From positions 1 through 61,384 of the IMG/VR virus record IMGVR_UViG_3300037961_004286: a DNA stretch of 61,384 nt. One strand, 5' to 3'. This DNA comes from a virus (Duplodnaviria; Caudoviricetes). This document shows positions 2,609-21,059 of this stretch, one piece after another. A model generated the notes under the pieces. It was not told the DNA's origin and made no database searches. It was given only the letters and a program-made list of their open reading frames with translations. A program made the translations under genes and the position numbers. Position 1 is the first letter of the stretch; each line of letters begins with the position of its first letter.

Positions 2609-3632
2609 GAATGACATAAAATTAGACTTTAAAGATGTTCTAATTAGACCTAAAAGATCAGAACTAAGTTCTAGATCTGAAGTAGTTTTAGATAGAAACT
2701 TTAAAGTAAACGAAAACGATGAATATAACTGGGTAGGTATTCCTATAGTTGCATCTAATATGGATACTACAGGTACTATAGAAATAGCTAAAATACTTAG
2801 AGAGTTTAAACTTTTAACTTTTTTACATAAGCATTATGAAGTAGAAGATCTATATAATATATTTTTTGAGCCTCAAGAGTATGTAGGTTACTCTATGGGT
2901 ATAACTGATTTAGATGTAAAAAAATGGGAACAGCTTCAGTCTAAATTACCAGTAGGTAATATTAAATGGGTTTGTATTGATGTAGCTAATGGTTATACAG
3001 AACGTTTTATAGAATTTGTAAAAGACTTTAAAGAAGCTAACCCTTCTATAAGGTTAGTTGCTGGTAATGTAGTTACTGGAGATATTACAGAGCAATTAAT
3101 CTTAGCAGGAGCAGATGTAGTTAAAGTAGGTATAGGTCCTGGTAGTGTTTGTACAACTAGAATTCAAACTGGTGTAGGTTATCCTCAATTATCATCTATA
3201 ATTGAATGCGCTGATGCTGCTCATGGTTTAGGTGGTAGAATTATGGCAGATGGAGGTTGTACTTGTCCTGGAGATGTAGCTAAAGCATTTGGAGCTAATG
3301 CTGATTTTGTTATGATAGGTGGTATGTTTGCTGGTCATGAAGAATCAGGAGGAGAAACTATCACAGAAAACGGAGAGTTATATAAAGTTTTCTATGGTAT
3401 GTCATCTGATACTGCTATGGAAAAGTATGCCGGAGGAGTAGCTGAATATAGATCTTCTGAAGGTAAAACTGTAAAAATTCCTTTTAGAGGTTCTATTGCT
3501 AATACAGTACAAAGTCTTTTAGGAGGTCTTAGAAGTTCTTGTACTTATGTAGGAGCAAGAGAACTAAGAGAGCTTTCTAAATGTACTACTTTTGTAAGAG
3601 TAAACGAAACACATAACAAGGTATTTGAATAA
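2598..3632 (+). CDS. guaC: GMP reductase
   Basis: [44 protein letters not shown]; no CBS domains. Confidence 0.95.
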
Positions 3633-17111: not shown

Positions 17112-18800
17112 ATGTGCGGAATAAATGGTATTACATCTCCTAATCAATTCGATAGAATAGATAAGATGATGGAGTACACTTATAAAAGAGGACCTGATGG
17201 AAAAGACGTTTATAGTAATGATGACGTTACATTTGGTCATAACCTTCTTGCTATATTTTCTGACATAGATAAATCTAAACAACCATATCATTATGAAGAT
17301 AGTGTACTTATCTTTAATGGTGCTATCTATAATTATAAAGAACTTGATGAATGGAATAGTCAATCAGGTACAGATACTGAAGTACTAATAAAAGGTTTAT
17401 ATCATTATGGTATAGATTTTATGAATAGATGTGAAGGTATGTGGGCTTTTGCATTTTATAGAAAAGGTTATACTATTATATGTAGAGATCATTTTGGTAT
17501 AAAACCTCTTTACTACAGACATAATGGTAATGAGTTAGTATTCTCATCTTCTATAAATGCTTTAGAAGTAGAAGATAAAAAACTTGATATGTTTGCTTTT
17601 AGTTTATACAATGCTTTTGGTTATGTTCCTGGATATCTAACTCTACTAAAAGGTTGTTACAAACTATGTCCAGGAGAATACATTACACATACAAAAGATA
17701 GTTTTAGTTCTGGTAATCTTTGGTATAGTAAAAAGTTTAGTATAGGTGAATATAATAAAGAAGAGTTTGTTTCTAAACTAGAACAAGCAGTAAAAAAGAG
17801 CTATGTAGGAATAAGACAGAGAGGTATCTTTTTATCAGGAGGACTTGATTCAACCTCTGTAGCTCATTTTCTTGGTGAAAAAAATACTTTTACTAATAGA
17901 TATACAGCAATAGATGAGCAGGTTAATGATGATGCTAACGTTGCTAAAAAAATGGCAGATGATTATAAATTTAACCATGAAGAGGTTATTATTACTCCTG
18001 AAATATTTTACGATAACATAGACGAATCCTTAGATAGCTTAGAACTTCCTGTGTTTAATAAATCTACTCCTTCTTATTTTTATATGAATAAAATAATGAG
18101 ATCTAAAAATACTATAGTAACTTATTCAGGAGACGGTGGAGACGAAATGTATACAGGTTACTCTGTTCATGGTCAATACGGTAACTATGAAGATCCTATA
18201 GAAGATCACTTTGAAACTATAAGCTGGAAGAAAAAGAAACAATTAAAGTTTACTAATGACAGTCTTTATATGACTAAGCAAAAATATCTATCTTATATGC
18301 ATAACTGGTTTCCTAAAAATGTATTCGGAAATGATCATATCAATAACTGTTTATTTGTTGAAATGATTACTAGAGTATCAGAAGATTTTTTAACTAGAAA
18401 TGATAAGTTTGGTTCTAATTTTGGAATGGAAGGTAGATTTCCTCTACTTAATTTGCCTTTCTATATGTATGTTATGTCTATTCCTTCTAATATTAAGATG
18501 AAAAATTTATCTATAGAAAATTTTAAACCTGGTGAATATAAATTTTTAGCTAGGAACAGTTTAAGTAATATCTTACCTGATTATGTTACTACAAAAAGTA
18601 AGTCTGGATGGTCTATTCCTGATGCTGAATGGAGAAAACAAGAAGATAAATTTATATCTAAAATGACAGATATAATTAAAGAGCCTCTCAATAATAATTT
18701 AGATAGTATTATTGATTGGAACTCTTCTAATGGACCTAAAACTTTTTATGCAGCTGTATTTCTTAAACAATGGTTGAAGAAGCACTCTATCAGCTTATAA
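17112..18800 (+). CDS. asnB: Asparagine synthetase B-like glutamine amidotransferase
   Basis: MCGI N-terminus, RGPD, FNGAIYN, RDHFGIKPLYY, LSGGLDS, SGDGGDE. Confidence 0.9.
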   Translation: MCGINGITSPNQFDRIDKMMEYTYKRGPDGKDVYSNDDVTFGHNLLAIFSDIDKSKQPYHYEDSVLIFNGAIYNYKELDEWNSQSGTDTEVLIKGLYHYGIDFMNRCEGMWAFAFYRKGYTIICRDHFGIKPLYYRHNGNELVFSSSINALEVEDKKLDMFAFSLYNAFGYVPGYLTLLKGCYKLCPGEYITHTKDSFSSGNLWYSKKFSIGEYNKEEFVSKLEQAVKKSYVGIRQRGIFLSGGLDSTSVAHFLGEKNTFTNRYTAIDEQVNDDANVAKKMADDYKFNHEEVIITPEIFYDNIDESLDSLELPVFNKSTPSYFYMNKIMRSKNTIVTYSGDGGDEMYTGYSVHGQYGNYEDPIEDHFETISWKKKKQLKFTNDSLYMTKQKYLSYMHNWFPKNVFGNDHINNCLFVEMITRVSEDFLTRNDKFGSNFGMEGRFPLLNLPFYMYVMSIPSNIKMKNLSIENFKPGEYKFLARNSLSNILPDYVTTKSKSGWSIPDAEWRKQEDKFISKMTDIIKEPLNNNLDSIIDWNSSNGPKTFYAAVFLKQWLKKHSISL

Positions 18801-18801
18801 G

Positions 18802-18829
18802 AAAAAAATATTACTATACACTATAAATA
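18802..18829 (+). promoter_or_regulatory. Promoter for tmRNA (TATAAATA, with A-tract 20 nt upstream)
   Basis: TATAAATA at 18822-18829 just before the acceptor piece. Confidence 0.65.
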
Positions 18830-18914
18830 TATTATACAAGGTTTATGATCGTGTATAGAATATACGGGCTGGACGCGGGGGCAGTACCCGCCGCTTCCAC
18901 CATAAGGACATTGA

Positions 18915-19103
18915 ATGGAGATTATTTGGCATATATTGTTAACCGCTTGTCTAAATTCAGAGTGCAGAACTCAAGATGTACAGTGGTTTGAAAACAAAAA
19001 TACTTGTGAAGCAACTAAAAAGCTTTATGAAGAGATTCCTATAGACGGAAACTGGACAAGTGTTAATTATATATGTAAGCCAAAAGACTCAGTGTCTTTA
19101 TGA
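18915..19103 (+). CDS. 62-aa Cys-containing protein encoded inside the tmRNA intervening sequence
   Basis: AAGGA RBS just after CCA; stop ends 1 nt before the tmRNA 5' end. Confidence 0.7.
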   Translation: MEIIWHILLTACLNSECRTQDVQWFENKNTCEATKKLYEEIPIDGNWTSVNYICKPKDSVSL

Positions 19104-19169
19104 TGGGAGCGAACTAGGATCGACAGACGTCATAAAAATATGCGTAGATTTTGTATAATAAAAGTAACT

Positions 19170-19259
19170 GCAAAACGCAAGTCTACTTTTGCTTCAATCC
19201 TTAGCACGAAGAGAGAAGTTACTTCCTCAAGTGCTCAGGCTCTTGCAGCGATTGCCTAA
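19170..19259 (+). other. tmRNA tag reading frame (A)AKRKSTFASILSTKREVTSSSAQALAAIA*
   Basis: Resume context aagtaact-GCA; Ala-rich hydrophobic end. Confidence 0.75.
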
Positions 19260-19388
19260 TCGAGTTAAGTACGATTAGCGGGGTTTTGGAGGTTTTTCCT
19301 GGCAACAGAAAAAACCTTCTTTTTTTGTTATAAATATATTGACGCCGATAATCGGGTCACTTTAAACTGTCCAATAATGGAGGTATTA

Positions 19389-19856
19389 ATGACAGGAACA
19401 TTTGCATTTCCTAGGAACGTTTTCCTAGGTTTCGATCACATCTTTAACGAACTAGACCATATTACTAAACATGCTCAGGATACTTATCCTCCGCATAATG
19501 TTGTAAAGGAAGATGATCTTCATTACATCTTAGAAATGGCTGTTGCTGGTTTCAAAGAAGATGATATTACTATTGAACTGAAAGACCACATTCTTACTGT
19601 AGAAGGTTCTCGAGATAAACGCAGAGAGCAAGAAAAGTATATTCATAAAGGTATTTCAGCTCGCAAGTTCAAAAAGTCATATAGACTGTCCGAATATACG
19701 GAAGTAGTCGGAGCTAAACTAGAGGATGGAATTCTTGCTATTGGTTTAGAAGTAGTCCTTCCCGAAGAGAAGCGTCCCCAATTGATCAAAATTAACGCTG
19801 ATACAAAGGGGATTAAAAATGACAGCACTAGCACTAAGAGGTTATTCACTTCTTAA
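19389..19856 (+). CDS. hsp20: Small heat shock protein Hsp20 (IbpA-like)
   Basis: LGFD, YPPHNVV, MAVAGF, YIHKGISARKF, PEEKRP; GGAGG RBS. Confidence 0.93.
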   Translation: MTGTFAFPRNVFLGFDHIFNELDHITKHAQDTYPPHNVVKEDDLHYILEMAVAGFKEDDITIELKDHILTVEGSRDKRREQEKYIHKGISARKFKKSYRLSEYTEVVGAKLEDGILAIGLEVVLPEEKRPQLIKINADTKGIKNDSTSTKRLFTS

Positions 19857-20588: not shown

Positions 20589-21059
20589 ATGACTGATAAG
20601 TTATGGAAAAAGGTTAGTAAAATGGATTTAGGAAACCCTATAATCACCGCTCTAGTTGGGTTGGTGATTTTTTATATTGGACTAAAAACGTTTTCTGGAG
20701 GCATGAAGTCGATGGGAAATATGGATCATTTGTCTTGGTTTACAGGTAACATTTTTTATATGTTTATCGGTGGCATTGTTATGACTTTGTTATGGCAATC
20801 TTCTTCATTATCTACAACAGCTATTATTGCTTTAGTAGCTTCAGGAGCTATTCCATTACCTGCTGCTATAGCTTGTGTATTAGGAGCTAATATAGGTACC
20901 ACAGGTACTATTTGGTTAGCTGGTTTACTAGTGTCAGATGGAATGCCAAAAGGTGATACTTTACGAATAGCATTGGCTCATACAGGAGTAAATTTAGCCA
21001 TGGCTGCTACATTACTACCTTTTGTAAGTCATATAGCTAAGTTTTTGCAAAAATTCTAG
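20589..21059 (+). CDS. Na+/phosphate cotransporter family protein (single repeat)
   Basis: TLLWQSSSLSTT and LGANIGTT signatures. Confidence 0.85.
   Translation: MTDKLWKKVSKMDLGNPIITALVGLVIFYIGLKTFSGGMKSMGNMDHLSWFTGNIFYMFIGGIVMTLLWQSSSLSTTAIIALVASGAIPLPAAIACVLGANIGTTGTIWLAGLLVSDGMPKGDTLRIALAHTGVNLAMAATLLPFVSHIAKFLQKF

Follow-up and report, generated by a model that had tools for sequence, protein, structure and literature searches.

A small protein-coding gene with signs of purifying selection in the spacer of a permuted phage tmRNA

The stretch of marine phage DNA analyzed here, called the window (IMG/VR record IMGVR_UViG_3300037961_004286, 61,384 nucleotides), carries on its plus strand a permuted tmRNA gene in which the acceptor piece precedes the coding piece and the intervening sequence (IVS) between the encoded CCA and the first nucleotide of the coding piece (G1) holds a 62-aa open reading frame, ORF62 (Table 1). 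Rfam covariance models gave an above-threshold permuted tmRNA match at 18791-19320 (plus strand), with 88.0 bits for alpha_tmRNA (RF01849; gathering score, 50) and 72.4 bits for tmRNA_permuted (RF04321; gathering score, 47). Both matches span the full model length and cross the IVS, which is treated as an insertion. A permuted two-piece tmRNA had been described here in an earlier note made from the letters alone; both models agree, and the coordinates given then match the sequence to the base, including the CCA end at 18902, the GGGAGCG start at 19105 and the 7-bp acceptor stem with its G3.U70 pair (G19107.T18896). These two tmRNA families were the only ones that Rfam reported in the window, with no match to an intron family when a group I intron was considered, and the insertion sits between CCA and G1, not in the T-loop as for group I introns.

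Table 1. Features of the tmRNA unit and its surroundings, with positions in the window
Feature	Position	Strand	Evidence or remark
TATAAATA, candidate T4-type late-promoter motif on the immediate 5' side of the unit	18822-18829	+	Motif match; predicted
Acceptor piece	18831-18902	+	Rfam, sequence, fold, T-arm and acceptor-stem covariation; inferred 5' end
5' strand of long-range helix (in acceptor piece)	18831-18847	+	Minimum-free-energy fold
T-arm	18875-18879/18887-18891	+	Sequence
Acceptor 3' strand	18892-18898	+	Sequence
Discriminator A (A73)	18899	+	Sequence
Encoded CCA	18900-18902	+	Sequence
IVS, 202 nt	18903-19104	+	Between CCA and coding-piece G1; Rfam insertion
Closing stem, 5' strand; contains Shine-Dalgarno (SD) AAGGA (18904-18908)	18903-18914	+	Sequence, duplex energy, covariation, fold
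ORF62, 62 aa, four invariant Cys, predicted beta-beta-alpha-beta fold	18915-19103	+	ORF call, homologues, dN/dS, AlphaFold2
Closing stem, 3' strand; also encodes C-terminal S-V-S-L	19089-19100	+	Sequence, duplex energy, covariation
Coding piece	19105-19320	+	Rfam, fold, ORF list
Acceptor 5' strand GGGAGCG	19105-19111	+	Start of coding piece
Partner of long-range helix (in coding piece)	19143-19159	+	Fold
Putative tag frame	19170-19259	+	ORF list
Terminal hairpin, then T-run	19288-19319	+	3' end of coding piece
Next TATAAATA, ahead of hsp20; marks the end of the tmRNA unit	19329-19336	+	Motif match
hsp20 gene	19377-19856	+	Downstream of second TATAAATA

Of the two inter-piece pairings proposed earlier, attatacaag/tttgtataat was present in the minimum-free-energy fold of 18831-19320, where it extends to 17 bp. 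The strands of the other, tttatga/tcataaa, are complementary, but this pairing competes with the 17-bp extension and is thus left unsettled. Of 348 pair cells in 14 distinct sister sequences, 99.1% were paired, and changes on both sides were found at 8 of 25 pairs, a result reached by 0 of 500 shuffles; three of these are acceptor-stem pairs, the strands of which lie about 200 nt apart across the ORF. G3.U70 was invariant (14 of 14 distinct relatives), and the 5-bp T-arm was 100% paired in the distinct relatives, with three pairs changed on both sides. In the window the acceptor pair A4-T69 is compensated, this pair being G-C in 13 of 14 relatives. From the tRNA-like geometry, an RNase P site would be expected at 19104/19105.

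A check with Rfam and ARAGORN, as proposed in the earlier note, succeeded in its first part only, since ARAGORN called no tmRNA in the window. The same program called permuted tmRNAs at 7 of 15 sister loci of the same layout and missed them at 8, and it also failed on the two closest relatives of the window (L002 and L003). In view of the Rfam scores and of the calls on sister loci, we did not take the missing call in the window as absence of a tmRNA. The tag frame of the window is atypical: it begins with GCA, encodes 29 aa and ends in AIA rather than LAA, the tags that ARAGORN gives for relatives of the same layout being 13 to 14 aa long and ending in LAA. With this frame and the ARAGORN failure, this particular tmRNA could be functionally altered. 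An outright decaying tmRNA, at a locus where only the ORF matters, would fit the odd tag and the failure of ARAGORN on the window and its two closest relatives, but we consider it very unlikely, as the window exceeds the gathering scores of both Rfam models, A4-T69 is compensated and G3.U70 is kept. Furthermore, the tags of L002 and L003 read as being of ordinary length and ending in LAA (by-eye translation of the alignment), and among the loci with an ORF as IVS cargo, 15 of 15 passed Rfam and 11 of 15 had ARAGORN tags ending in LAA or IAA.

As the earlier note had stated, the IVS is filled by a ribosome-binding site and a 62-aa ORF. Its ends form a closing stem of 12 bp (two G.U pairs), which in the fold can be extended by C18901-G19102 and A18902-T19101, and the duplex has a predicted energy of -18.3 kcal/mol (z = -6.7 versus shuffles). 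In 16 of 16 loci with ORF62 inside the IVS, the closing duplex has 12 to 15 bp (-13 to -20 kcal/mol; z, -4.4 to -6.8), whereas end-pairing in the remaining 47 ORF62 loci reaches only -1.6 to -11.9 kcal/mol. In 47 distinct phage IVSs, 94.5% of the stem was paired, several positions showing four to six pair types; in the controls, shuffled partners were at most 74.8% paired and slid registers 27 to 52% paired. An origin of the stem as part of an ORF62 cassette (tRNA-flanked copies of ORF62 have a weaker version of 7 to 9 bp) was considered and rejected, because IVSs with other cargo, and empty ones, have the stem as well. The closing stem belongs to the phage IVS hairpin itself, not to ORF62. 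ORF62-type cargo alone has its SD within the stem; several other cargos (e.g., at L077/L078, L124, L130 and L137) have an SD-like purine run just inside the loop, as read off the sequences and not tallied. Thus, the stem that the earlier note had seen as burying the SD of the ORF exists and covaries, as do the acceptor halves across the ORF, but it is a feature of the hairpin, and the burial applies to ORF62-type cargo only.

By its homologues and its pattern of substitutions, ORF62 is a real gene under purifying selection. It has 61 viral homologues (counted as loci), and 55 of 63 copies are exactly 62 aa long. The dN/dS ratio was 0.05 to the nearest relatives (window versus L002: dN, 0.037; dS, 0.81), with a median of 0.21 for 62 of the 66 pairs of copies that reside in an IVS, so that the conservation on which the earlier note had staked its reading was indeed found. 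An alignment of 40 sequences has 19 invariant columns and shows the four Cys and the motifs QD.Q.F and DG.W. The N-terminus is a conserved hydrophobic strand, and the C-terminus is remodelled to S-V/M-S-L where it encodes the closing stem. The AlphaFold2 model is a small fold predicted with confidence (pLDDT, 89.8). We considered residues 8 to 12 (L-L-T-A/V-C) as a sign of a lipoprotein signal peptide and dropped the idea, since just 11 residues, none of them positively charged, precede the Cys and AlphaFold2 makes them a sheet strand. ORF62 had no match in Pfam or PHROGs, and nothing in the PDB resembled its fold at better than E = 0.6; its fold matches in BFVD were uncharacterised small phage proteins only, and a protein atlas returned only unnamed viral clusters and a weak DUF1482 lead at 0.81.

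The ORF-in-IVS layout recurs in 15 further viral contigs. At 47 of 63 loci ORF62 lies outside the IVS, beside the tmRNA, between tRNAs or in ordinary operons, which implies no dependence on tmRNA. It is found between tRNA-Thr and tRNA-Leu at eight loci, and at eight tRNA-flanked loci the last base of the ORF62 stop is the first base of the tRNA. In the ORF62 gene tree (186 columns; 18 of 44 inner forks unresolved), the in-IVS state needs at least two changes, which may have run in either direction. Against cultured phages, blastn of 18700-19400 gave no match and megablast of 25 kb matched only a 114-nt DNA-polymerase stretch of Melnitz. This Methylophilales phage has an ORF62 homologue (51% identity) just upstream of its tmRNA, the IVS of which is 142 nt long and contains a different, unannotated 54-aa ORF.

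Phage and bacterial loci were scanned with the same pattern and script (a pairing-based search for the coding piece). Each scan listed at least 80 loci, and 11 of 80 were dropped per set, no coding piece having been found, which left 69 phage and 69 bacterial loci. Among the 69 alpha-type phage loci listed, the IVS had a median length of 78 nt (range, 4 to 277) and was at least 140 nt long in 13. Among the 69 bacterial loci listed, the median was 28 nt and the maximum 83, none reaching 100 nt, in keeping with the short loop described for bacteria in the earlier note; in Pelagibacteraceae, the IVS measures 7 to 12 nt. Long spacers were thus restricted to phages among the 69 phage and 69 bacterial loci listed. 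All 13 long (at least 140 nt) phage IVSs were filled to 77 to 96% by one ORF, starting 4 to 66 nt after CCA (12 to 23 nt in 11 of 13). Shuffles matched the ORF cover of these IVSs in 1 to 36 of 1,000 each, and at sister locus L143, also with an IVS of 202 nt, the fill of 94% was reached in 1 of 1,000. Spacer ORFs end at stops in the conserved leader or body of the tmRNA itself. Among the 22 IVSs of at least 100 nt, 10, five of them among the 13 long ones, have a longest ORF that reaches its stop 13 nt inside the coding piece, at a TAG within the segment from G1 to TCGAC; stops either 13 or 33 nt inside account for 6 of the 13. RNase P cleavage at G1 would remove a stop that lies 13 nt past it.

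The ORFs of the long IVSs fall into about eight unrelated families. Recurrent cargo families had dN/dS ratios of 0.17 to 0.51, and one pair had pN of 0.31 versus pS of 0.84. Two cargo ORFs matched Pfam DUF6356 (43.3 and 33.5 bits; cut-off, 24.4), and PHROGs gave no match for nine cargo ORFs. Family 2 encodes 47 aa; only 7 of the 68 loci of family 3 place it inside an IVS, and this family had no tblastn match in cultured phages. Near-identical tmRNAs carry different cargo: L109 (with ORF62) and L124 (with an unrelated 61-aa ORF) agree in tag, acceptor stem and 3' domain, and in one DNA run relatives were found in which the same stem encloses a 13-nt loop or a different insert of 238 nt. Such swapping and the number of families sustain the suggestion of the earlier note that the IVS serves as a cargo slot.

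The tmRNA unit is preceded and followed by TATAAATA, a candidate T4-type late-promoter motif. In T4-type late units this motif lies about 6 to 10 nt before the transcript start and works with the phage late sigma factor. It is not enriched in the window (7 matches versus 13.3 expected) and is found at the same relative position in the A1 consensus and in Melnitz. A 238-nt RNA-library contig, assembled from material that may contain DNA, covers 18951-19188 with 0 mismatches and crosses the expected RNase P site, and a second, subject to the same proviso, covers 18917-19111. These contigs are assemblies that give no ends, strand or level, and stretches that they leave uncovered (e.g., 18500-18868) carry no meaning. 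If the two pieces were separate genes, transcribed independently with the help of a further promoter inside or behind the ORF and without a common precursor, a start signal would be needed between them; no TATAAATA and no sigma70-like site was found within 18903-19104. As the ends of the IVS also covary as a stem and, more weakly, an RNA-library contig bridges the ORF and the coding piece, this arrangement is very unlikely.

We consider it probable that the tmRNA spacer is a recurrent slot for small phage genes and that the pre-tmRNA doubles as their mRNA. The anatomy, the selection on the ORF, the covariation of the stems and the variety and exchange of cargo are observed; a single precursor, an order of events and the enzymes that process it are what we infer. 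Positions 18822-19327 would form one transcription unit, from the late-promoter-like motif to the terminator hairpin, and the primary transcript would be the passenger's mRNA as well as the precursor from which both tmRNA pieces come. The closing stem would stack under the acceptor stem, so that the content of the loop would leave the folding of the tRNA-like domain undisturbed; on this basis the spacer could have become a recurrent landing and expression slot, with ORF62 as one of several passengers. For ORF62, the two jobs would clash on one molecule. Since its ribosome-binding site lies in the closing stem 2 to 6 nt after CCA and a single nucleotide separates its stop from the expected RNase P site, a ribosome would have to melt both the closing and the acceptor stems, and by the same geometry a folded or processed molecule would be untranslatable to its proper stop. 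Translation and maturation would then be mutually exclusive, as the earlier note had offered as one of two options. Most likely, ribosomes would load during transcription, while the 3' strand of the stem is yet to be made; thereafter the RNA would fold, RNase P and 3' trimming would free the two tmRNA pieces, and the spacer would be discarded.

The other option was an excised mini-mRNA, a spacer RNA freed by RNase P and 3' processing and translated afterwards. Excised ORF62 RNA would indeed keep its SD, start and stop, the latter 1 nt before the cut, and tRNA-flanked copies of ORF62 show the same tight punctuation. However, a closing stem of 12 to 15 bp would tie the SD to the 3' end after excision, excision would remove the stop codon in the 6 of 13 long IVSs whose ORF runs on for 13 or 33 nt in the coding piece, and at eight tRNA-flanked loci the stop shares its last base with the tRNA; we regard this option as decidedly unlikely. 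A possible though doubtful alternative is that the spacer is a neutral parking place, which tolerates insertions, with passengers expressed from any crossing transcript without coupling and a stem that serves tmRNA folding only. That ORF62 lies outside the IVS at 47 of 63 loci and family 3 inside it at only 7 of 68, that the cargo families are unrelated with no common function match and that the closing stem is found in empty IVSs too would all be expected of such a place. The tight fit of the ORFs, which in 11 of the 13 long IVSs start 12 to 23 nt past CCA, their use of stops in the tmRNA's own conserved leader or body and the remodelled C-terminus of ORF62 (S-V/M-S-L) where it forms the stem argue against it, and the geometry would force an interaction of translation and folding, whatever its purpose.

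Within the preferred reading, that of a slot whose pre-tmRNA doubles as mRNA, the pre-tmRNA might even be self-referential. It would serve first as the mRNA of the passenger; maturation by RNase P would then leave a message without a stop, and the released tmRNA would tag late-made passenger for degradation, so that the tmRNA from a precursor would target ribosomes stalled on the spacer of that precursor. A stop-less message would apply to 6 of 13 long IVSs, those with a stop 13 or 33 nt inside the mature RNA, whereas the processed message of ORF62 would end right at its stop instead. We think this extension unlikely; if true, it would provide a built-in timer or dose limiter for interchangeable small phage effectors and make the spacer a general plug-in expression slot.

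A literature search, restricted to the available main text for PMC9004378 and PMC11915505, gave no description of a protein gene in a tmRNA spacer, and a protein gene under selection within the spacer that a naturally split structural RNA discards is an architecture that we did not find described. Where a protein gene sits in a tmRNA spacer, recurrently and with interchangeable cargo, one transcript would have to choose between being read and being folded. The locus offers a concrete, testable case of translation versus RNA maturation, and cultured phage Melnitz has an ORF-bearing spacer. The calls missed by ARAGORN in the window and at 8 of 15 sister loci, together with the public Melnitz record, in which no ORF is annotated inside the tmRNA, suggest that tmRNA and small phage proteins are under-called. 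Permuted RNA genes may become insertion-tolerant platforms, which would be relevant to the movement of small accessory genes in abundant marine phages and to passenger slots in designed structured RNAs.

The window resembles the two-piece tmRNA of alphaproteobacteria (RF01849/RF04321) in the order of the pieces, G3.U70, the encoded CCA, the alpha-type T-loop and the 3' domain, and differs from it in that the bacterial IVS is short (at most 83 nt among the loci listed), whereas the 202-nt IVS of the window is a protein gene. Transcripts shared by tRNA and mRNA, in which tRNAs act as punctuation, occur in the Escherichia coli tufB operon, in the T4 tRNA region and in mitochondria. There, too, mRNA is bounded by tRNA-processing sites, and ORF62 itself lies between tRNA-Thr and tRNA-Leu at eight loci; however, the flanking RNAs are independent of each other, whereas the tmRNA flanks must pair into one functional RNA. 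Group I introns that sit in the T-loop of tmRNA and carry LAGLIDADG homing-endonuclease genes, as covered in the available portions of a 2025 tmRNA database paper (PMC11915505), likewise nest a protein gene in the tmRNA gene that is absent from the mature RNA, but they are self-splicing, their exons are ligated and their cargo serves intron mobility. In the same portions, one IVS is reported to contain an intact tRNA-Ala gene, called "unique," and another a repetitive element, in a gene of 1152 bp; the term "ORF" occurs 0 times, and "protein-coding" is used only for intron homing endonucleases. These cases (PMC11915505) resemble the window in their non-trivial IVS cargo and differ in that, as described there, the cargo is RNA or repeat, the cases are single and the genomes are nominally cellular. 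The 23S rRNA IVS of Coxiella burnetii encodes S23p, a protein that, going by the available part of PMC4990558, is apparently not made in vivo. As set out in that part, it too is the spacer of a structural-RNA precursor, cut without religation, with base-paired fragments and a small ORF inside; however, it concerns another RNA and a single family of selfish elements, whereas the phage tmRNA has several selected families in a naturally split gene. The ssrA of Melnitz and related marine myophages, as presented in the available sections of PMC9004378, is like the window a phage-borne, alpha-type permuted tmRNA with TATAAATA in front, and those sections, in treating the two-piece ssrA, make no mention of an ORF in the IVS. 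Unlike the window, Melnitz has ORF62 upstream of its tmRNA and carries the other, 54-aa ORF in its 142-nt IVS.

The permuted two-piece tmRNA that an earlier note had read from the sequence alone was recovered in the window by two overlapping Rfam matches. Both exceed their gathering scores, and in both an insertion of about 170 nt separates the acceptor piece from the coding piece. The positions it gave for the tmRNA pieces, for the spacer between them (from the CCA end to G1) and for ORF62, the 62-aa open reading frame within this spacer, were all confirmed. The window (61,384 bases from the record of an uncultured virus) has about 34% G+C, with positive GC skew in 30 of 30 two-kb bins. Both the T-arm and the acceptor stem were kept in the minimum-free-energy fold of 18831-19320. 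A second inter-piece helix claimed earlier (tttatga/tcataaa) was indeed complementary, but it competes with the 17-bp long-range helix of this fold. ARAGORN, named beforehand as a further check, gave no tmRNA call on the window. The putative tag frame there encodes 29 aa, with a basic first half and the end AIA, and tags of the relatives have 9 to 14 aa and end in LAA or IAA; this odd frame may be the reason for the missed call. ARAGORN also gave no call on the closest relatives, L002 and L003, despite a 14-aa tag ending in LAA that both appear, by eye in the alignment, to retain.

Features of the tmRNA region in the window (MFE, minimum-free-energy fold of 18831-19320)
Feature	Position	Strand	Basis
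Asparagine-synthase-like gene	17112-18800		GATase and Asn_synthase domains
alpha_tmRNA match	18791-19320	+	Rfam, 88 bits (gathering score, 50)
TATAAATA, first	18822-18829		Sequence
Long-range helix, 17 bp	18831-18847 with 19143-19159		MFE
tmRNA_permuted match	18841-19259	+	Rfam, 72.4 bits (gathering score, 47)
T-arm	18875-18891	+	Sequence
Acceptor 3' strand	18892-18898, then A, CCA ending 18902	+	Sequence
Closing stem in fold	18901-18914 with 19089-19102		MFE
Closing stem, 12 pairs	18903-18914 with 19089-19100	+	Sequence
Spacer, 202 nt	18903-19104	+	Sequence
AAGGA	18904-18908	+	Sequence
ORF62, 62 codons	18915-19103	+	ORF call
Acceptor 5' strand GGGAGCG	19105-19111	+	Sequence; 7 pairs including G3.U70
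Putative tag frame	19170-19259
Terminal hairpin, T-run after	19288-19319 (unit ends 19288-19326)		MFE
TATAAATA, second	19329-19336		Sequence
Hsp20 gene	19377-19856
Short 156-aa ORF	20589-21059		Match to Na+/Pi-cotransporter repeats

Homologues of ORF62 in cultured phages were found by tblastn in four Melnitz isolates only (51% identity), and a scan of viral contigs gave 61 loci (52 to 92% identity); the distribution is wide but patchy. Length was exactly 62 aa in 55 of 63 copies, residues 1 to 12 were near-invariant, and four cysteines were invariant. By pairwise Nei-Gojobori estimates, ORF62 of the window differed from that of L002 or L003 with a dN of 0.037 and a dS of 0.81. Median dN/dS was 0.21 for 12 distinct spacer-resident coding sequences (62 of 66 pairs; 4 with a dS of 0.05 or less were excluded) and 0.155 for 42 distinct 62-codon sequences (550 of 861 pairs; 304 saturated pairs and 7 with a dS of 0.05 or less were excluded). 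The homologues and the ratio among spacer-resident copies bear out the conservation on which the earlier reading had proposed to be judged, and, by sequence criteria, ORF62 is a real gene. AlphaFold2, run on a 40-sequence alignment, predicted a beta-beta-alpha-beta fold with confidence (pLDDT 89.8; pTM 0.71); structure and family searches with ORF62 gave no informative match.

Sixteen loci with ORF62 inside the spacer, 14 of them distinct, were aligned, and 25 pairs were counted in the T-arm, the acceptor stem and the closing stem, i.e., the pairing between the two spacer ends that extends the acceptor helix. In the 14 distinct sequences 99.1% of 348 cells were paired (32 to 51% in slid registers), and both sides had changed in 8 pairs (shuffled mean, 3.0; 8 reached in 0 of 500 shuffles). 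The acceptor stem held 3 covarying pairs, one with four pair types; one acceptor pair is A-T in the window and G-C in 13 of 14 sequences, and G3.U70 was invariant across the aligned loci. Such covariation across the ORF argues against a dead tmRNA and for selection on the pairing of strands 200 nt apart in the gene. A closing duplex of 12 to 15 bp, joining the nucleotides directly after CCA with the last ORF codons, was present in 16 of 16 in-spacer loci (-13.2 to -19.9 kcal/mol; z, -4.4 to -6.8); the same duplex measured in other ORF62 contexts gave -1.6 to -11.9 kcal/mol. Its 3' strand encodes the C-terminus S-V/M-S-L of in-slot ORF62, and copies elsewhere end differently. The closing stem was also found in the spacer of the cultured phage Melnitz, which holds no ORF62, and in a 28-nt empty spacer (L057). 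In 47 distinct phage spacers of at least 44 nt, among the matches listed, position +i after CCA paired with -(i+4) before G1 in a fixed register, with 94.5% of cells paired (at most 74.8% with shuffled partners; 27 to 52% in slid registers) and as many as six pair types at one position. The stem covariation that had been suggested as a check was present in the closing stem and in the acceptor pairs, and the closing stem is a property of the phage spacer, not of ORF62.

Viral contigs and bacterial genomes were scanned for one pattern, an alpha-type T-loop plus acceptor end, and both sets were analyzed with one script; each scan gave at least 80 loci, the samples being defined by this single T-loop pattern. 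The coding piece was found in 69 of 80 listed loci per set; the 11 left out included several visibly short-spacer genes missed by the motif. Among the matches listed, viral spacers (in IMG/VR contigs, which may contain host fragments) had a median of 78 nt (4 to 277), with 22 of at least 100 nt and 13 of at least 140 nt, whereas bacterial spacers had a median of 28 nt (3 to 83), with none of at least 100 or 140 nt; those of Pelagibacteraceae measured 7 to 12 nt. The short bacterial spacers assumed earlier were borne out in these 69 loci. In all 13 viral spacers of at least 140 nt among the matches listed, one ORF starting 4 to 66 nt after CCA covered 77 to 96% of the spacer, and shuffled spacers equaled this cover in 1 to 36 of 1000 trials each. 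The ORF-bearing slot is general and phage-specific among the matches listed.

The cargoes (protein ORFs occupying the spacer) of these 13, among the matches listed, were ORF62 (2 loci), one family of Trp-rich ORFs (43 to 47 aa; 3 loci; dN/dS, 0.17 to 0.51), another family whose members have 73 to 74 aa and a tail of hydrophobic residues (2 loci; pN 0.31 versus pS 0.84), two DUF6356 ORFs above the Pfam cut-off (L089, 8744-8932; L119, 6425-6595) and 4 singletons; shorter spacers held a pair of 35- to 36-aa ORFs (dN/dS, 0.34). All 15 cargo-bearing loci checked scored above the Rfam gathering score, and in 11 of the 15 ARAGORN called a tag with LAA or IAA at its end. Cargo swapping, also suggested as a test in the earlier note, was seen in two near-identical tmRNAs, L109, which carries ORF62, and L124, which carries a basic 61-aa ORF unrelated to it; tag, acceptor stem and 3' domain are common to both, and the spacer interiors are unrelated. 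In one DNA run, relatives had a loop of 13 nt or another insert, of 238 nt, enclosed by the same stem arms, and in one RNA-library run a relative had yet another insert, of 119 nt. The 73-aa family occurred at 68 viral loci, inside the spacer in only 7; in 7 more it adjoined a tmRNA gene whose spacer has different content. Like ORF62, it moves into and out of the slot. The 142-nt spacer of Melnitz (L001, MZ577097; 3305-3469) holds an unannotated 54-aa ORF with GGAG 7 nt upstream, whose frame extends 42 nt into the coding piece and is retained with amino-acid changes in related contigs (L031 and L036). A 122-nt spacer (L016) holds a hydrophobic 37-aa ORF ending at the same TGA as ORF62. The L089 ORF has relatives in Nitrosopumilaceae spindle-shaped viruses (46 to 48% identity by tblastn), so this small DUF6356 gene occurs in very different viruses.

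The 63 copies of ORF62 were sorted after tmRNA pieces had been placed by motif and the other loci examined with Rfam and ARAGORN. ORF62 lay inside the spacer in the window and 15 contigs, directly upstream of a permuted tmRNA at 9 loci (Melnitz among these), downstream of one in L007 (adjacent; L008 is the same sequence) and in L004 and L005 (about 1.2 to 1.7 kb off), between ARAGORN-called tRNA-Thr(TGT) and tRNA-Leu(TAG) at 8 loci, beside a tRNA on one side only at 6 and in ordinary protein-gene neighbourhoods at 19. L053, its upstream tRNA truncated by the locus end, probably has the same tRNA-Thr/tRNA-Leu arrangement. ARAGORN called a permuted tmRNA of about 510 to 520 nt in 7 of the 15 in-spacer contigs, with tags such as ANDNYAPEMALAA. 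At least two changes were needed for the in-spacer state on the ORF62 tree, which is short and poorly resolved. At the tRNA-wedged loci (L017 [2910-3272], L022, L024, L043, L054 and L059-L061) the encoded CCA of tRNA-Thr stands 13 to 21 nt before the ATG. At 8 loci (L017, L022, L024, L027, L043, L045, L053 and L054) the TAG stop of ORF62 and the ARAGORN-called tRNA-Leu share one base, the final G of the former being the first nucleotide of the latter; RNase P cleavage there would sever the stop codon. Some tRNA-flanked loci have a stem of 7 to 9 bp from the Shine-Dalgarno sequence (SD) to the 3' end, weaker than the in-spacer closing stem. In L057 (464-811), ORF62 lies upstream of the tmRNA with the empty spacer, whose stem arms, AAGGA included, are the same as those of ORF62-bearing spacers; with its S-V-S-L end, typical of in-spacer copies, this ORF62 looks like a copy that may have moved out of the spacer. 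A manA RNA motif follows tRNA-Leu beside ORF62 in L043 (3345-3552; 58.7 bits; gathering score, 55.2), and a known glutamine riboswitch lies 3' of the Melnitz tmRNA (L001, 3607-3655); Rfam found neither in the window.

A match to the T4-type late-promoter motif, TATAAATA, lies directly before the acceptor piece, at the same place in relatives and in Melnitz, and a second lies ahead of hsp20. The whole window has 7 (6 on the plus strand) versus 13.3 expected from shuffles, a depletion in line with avoidance elsewhere if the motif works as a signal. No promoter-like site was found in the window spacer. The asparagine-synthase-like, Hsp20 and Na+/Pi-cotransporter-like genes flanking the unit all seem to be of an auxiliary metabolic or stress type.

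The covarying closing stem implies that both spacer ends are in one RNA, and the pre-tmRNA would therefore double as the ORF62 message. From standard ribosome footprints and geometry, a 30S subunit on the SD 2 to 6 nt after CCA presumably overlaps the acceptor 3' strand, and a ribosome at the TGA (19101-19103) presumably covers the acceptor 5' strand; with both strands overlapped, translation and the folded tRNA-like domain would be mutually exclusive on each molecule. Among the matches listed, the longest ORF stopped 13 nt into the coding piece in 10 of 22 spacers of at least 100 nt and 5 of 13 of at least 140 nt, at a conserved TAG inside the G1-to-TCGAC segment in the sequences read, and one more long-spacer ORF stopped at +33; such proteins would be completed only on the uncut precursor. 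RNA-library contigs covered 18951-19188 (0 mismatches), 18917-19111 and 19122-19283; possibly DNA carry-over and blind to ends, these contigs hint only weakly at an unprocessed precursor. In the simplest order, the cargo would be translated during transcription, the RNA would then fold, RNase P cleavage and 3' trimming would follow, and the spacer would be lost.

The nearest analogues of this arrangement are messages punctuated by tRNAs, introns of tmRNA genes that encode homing endonucleases, and 23S rRNA intervening sequences that carry an ORF (PMC4990558). Phage two-piece tmRNAs have been described, with 53 in isolates, mostly marine, in the account of PMC9004378. The text of the 2025 tmRNA database (PMC11915505) records one spacer that is called 'unique' for its tRNA gene and another that contains a repeat element; the word 'ORF' is absent from that text, and protein-coding genes are named there only for intron homing endonucleases. 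A full-text literature search found no account of a protein-coding gene within the spacer of a tmRNA; supplementary tables might list long spacers. The two-piece tmRNA family is already known; what appears to be new is that it carries nested protein cargo that can be exchanged, and that its precursor has a dual use.
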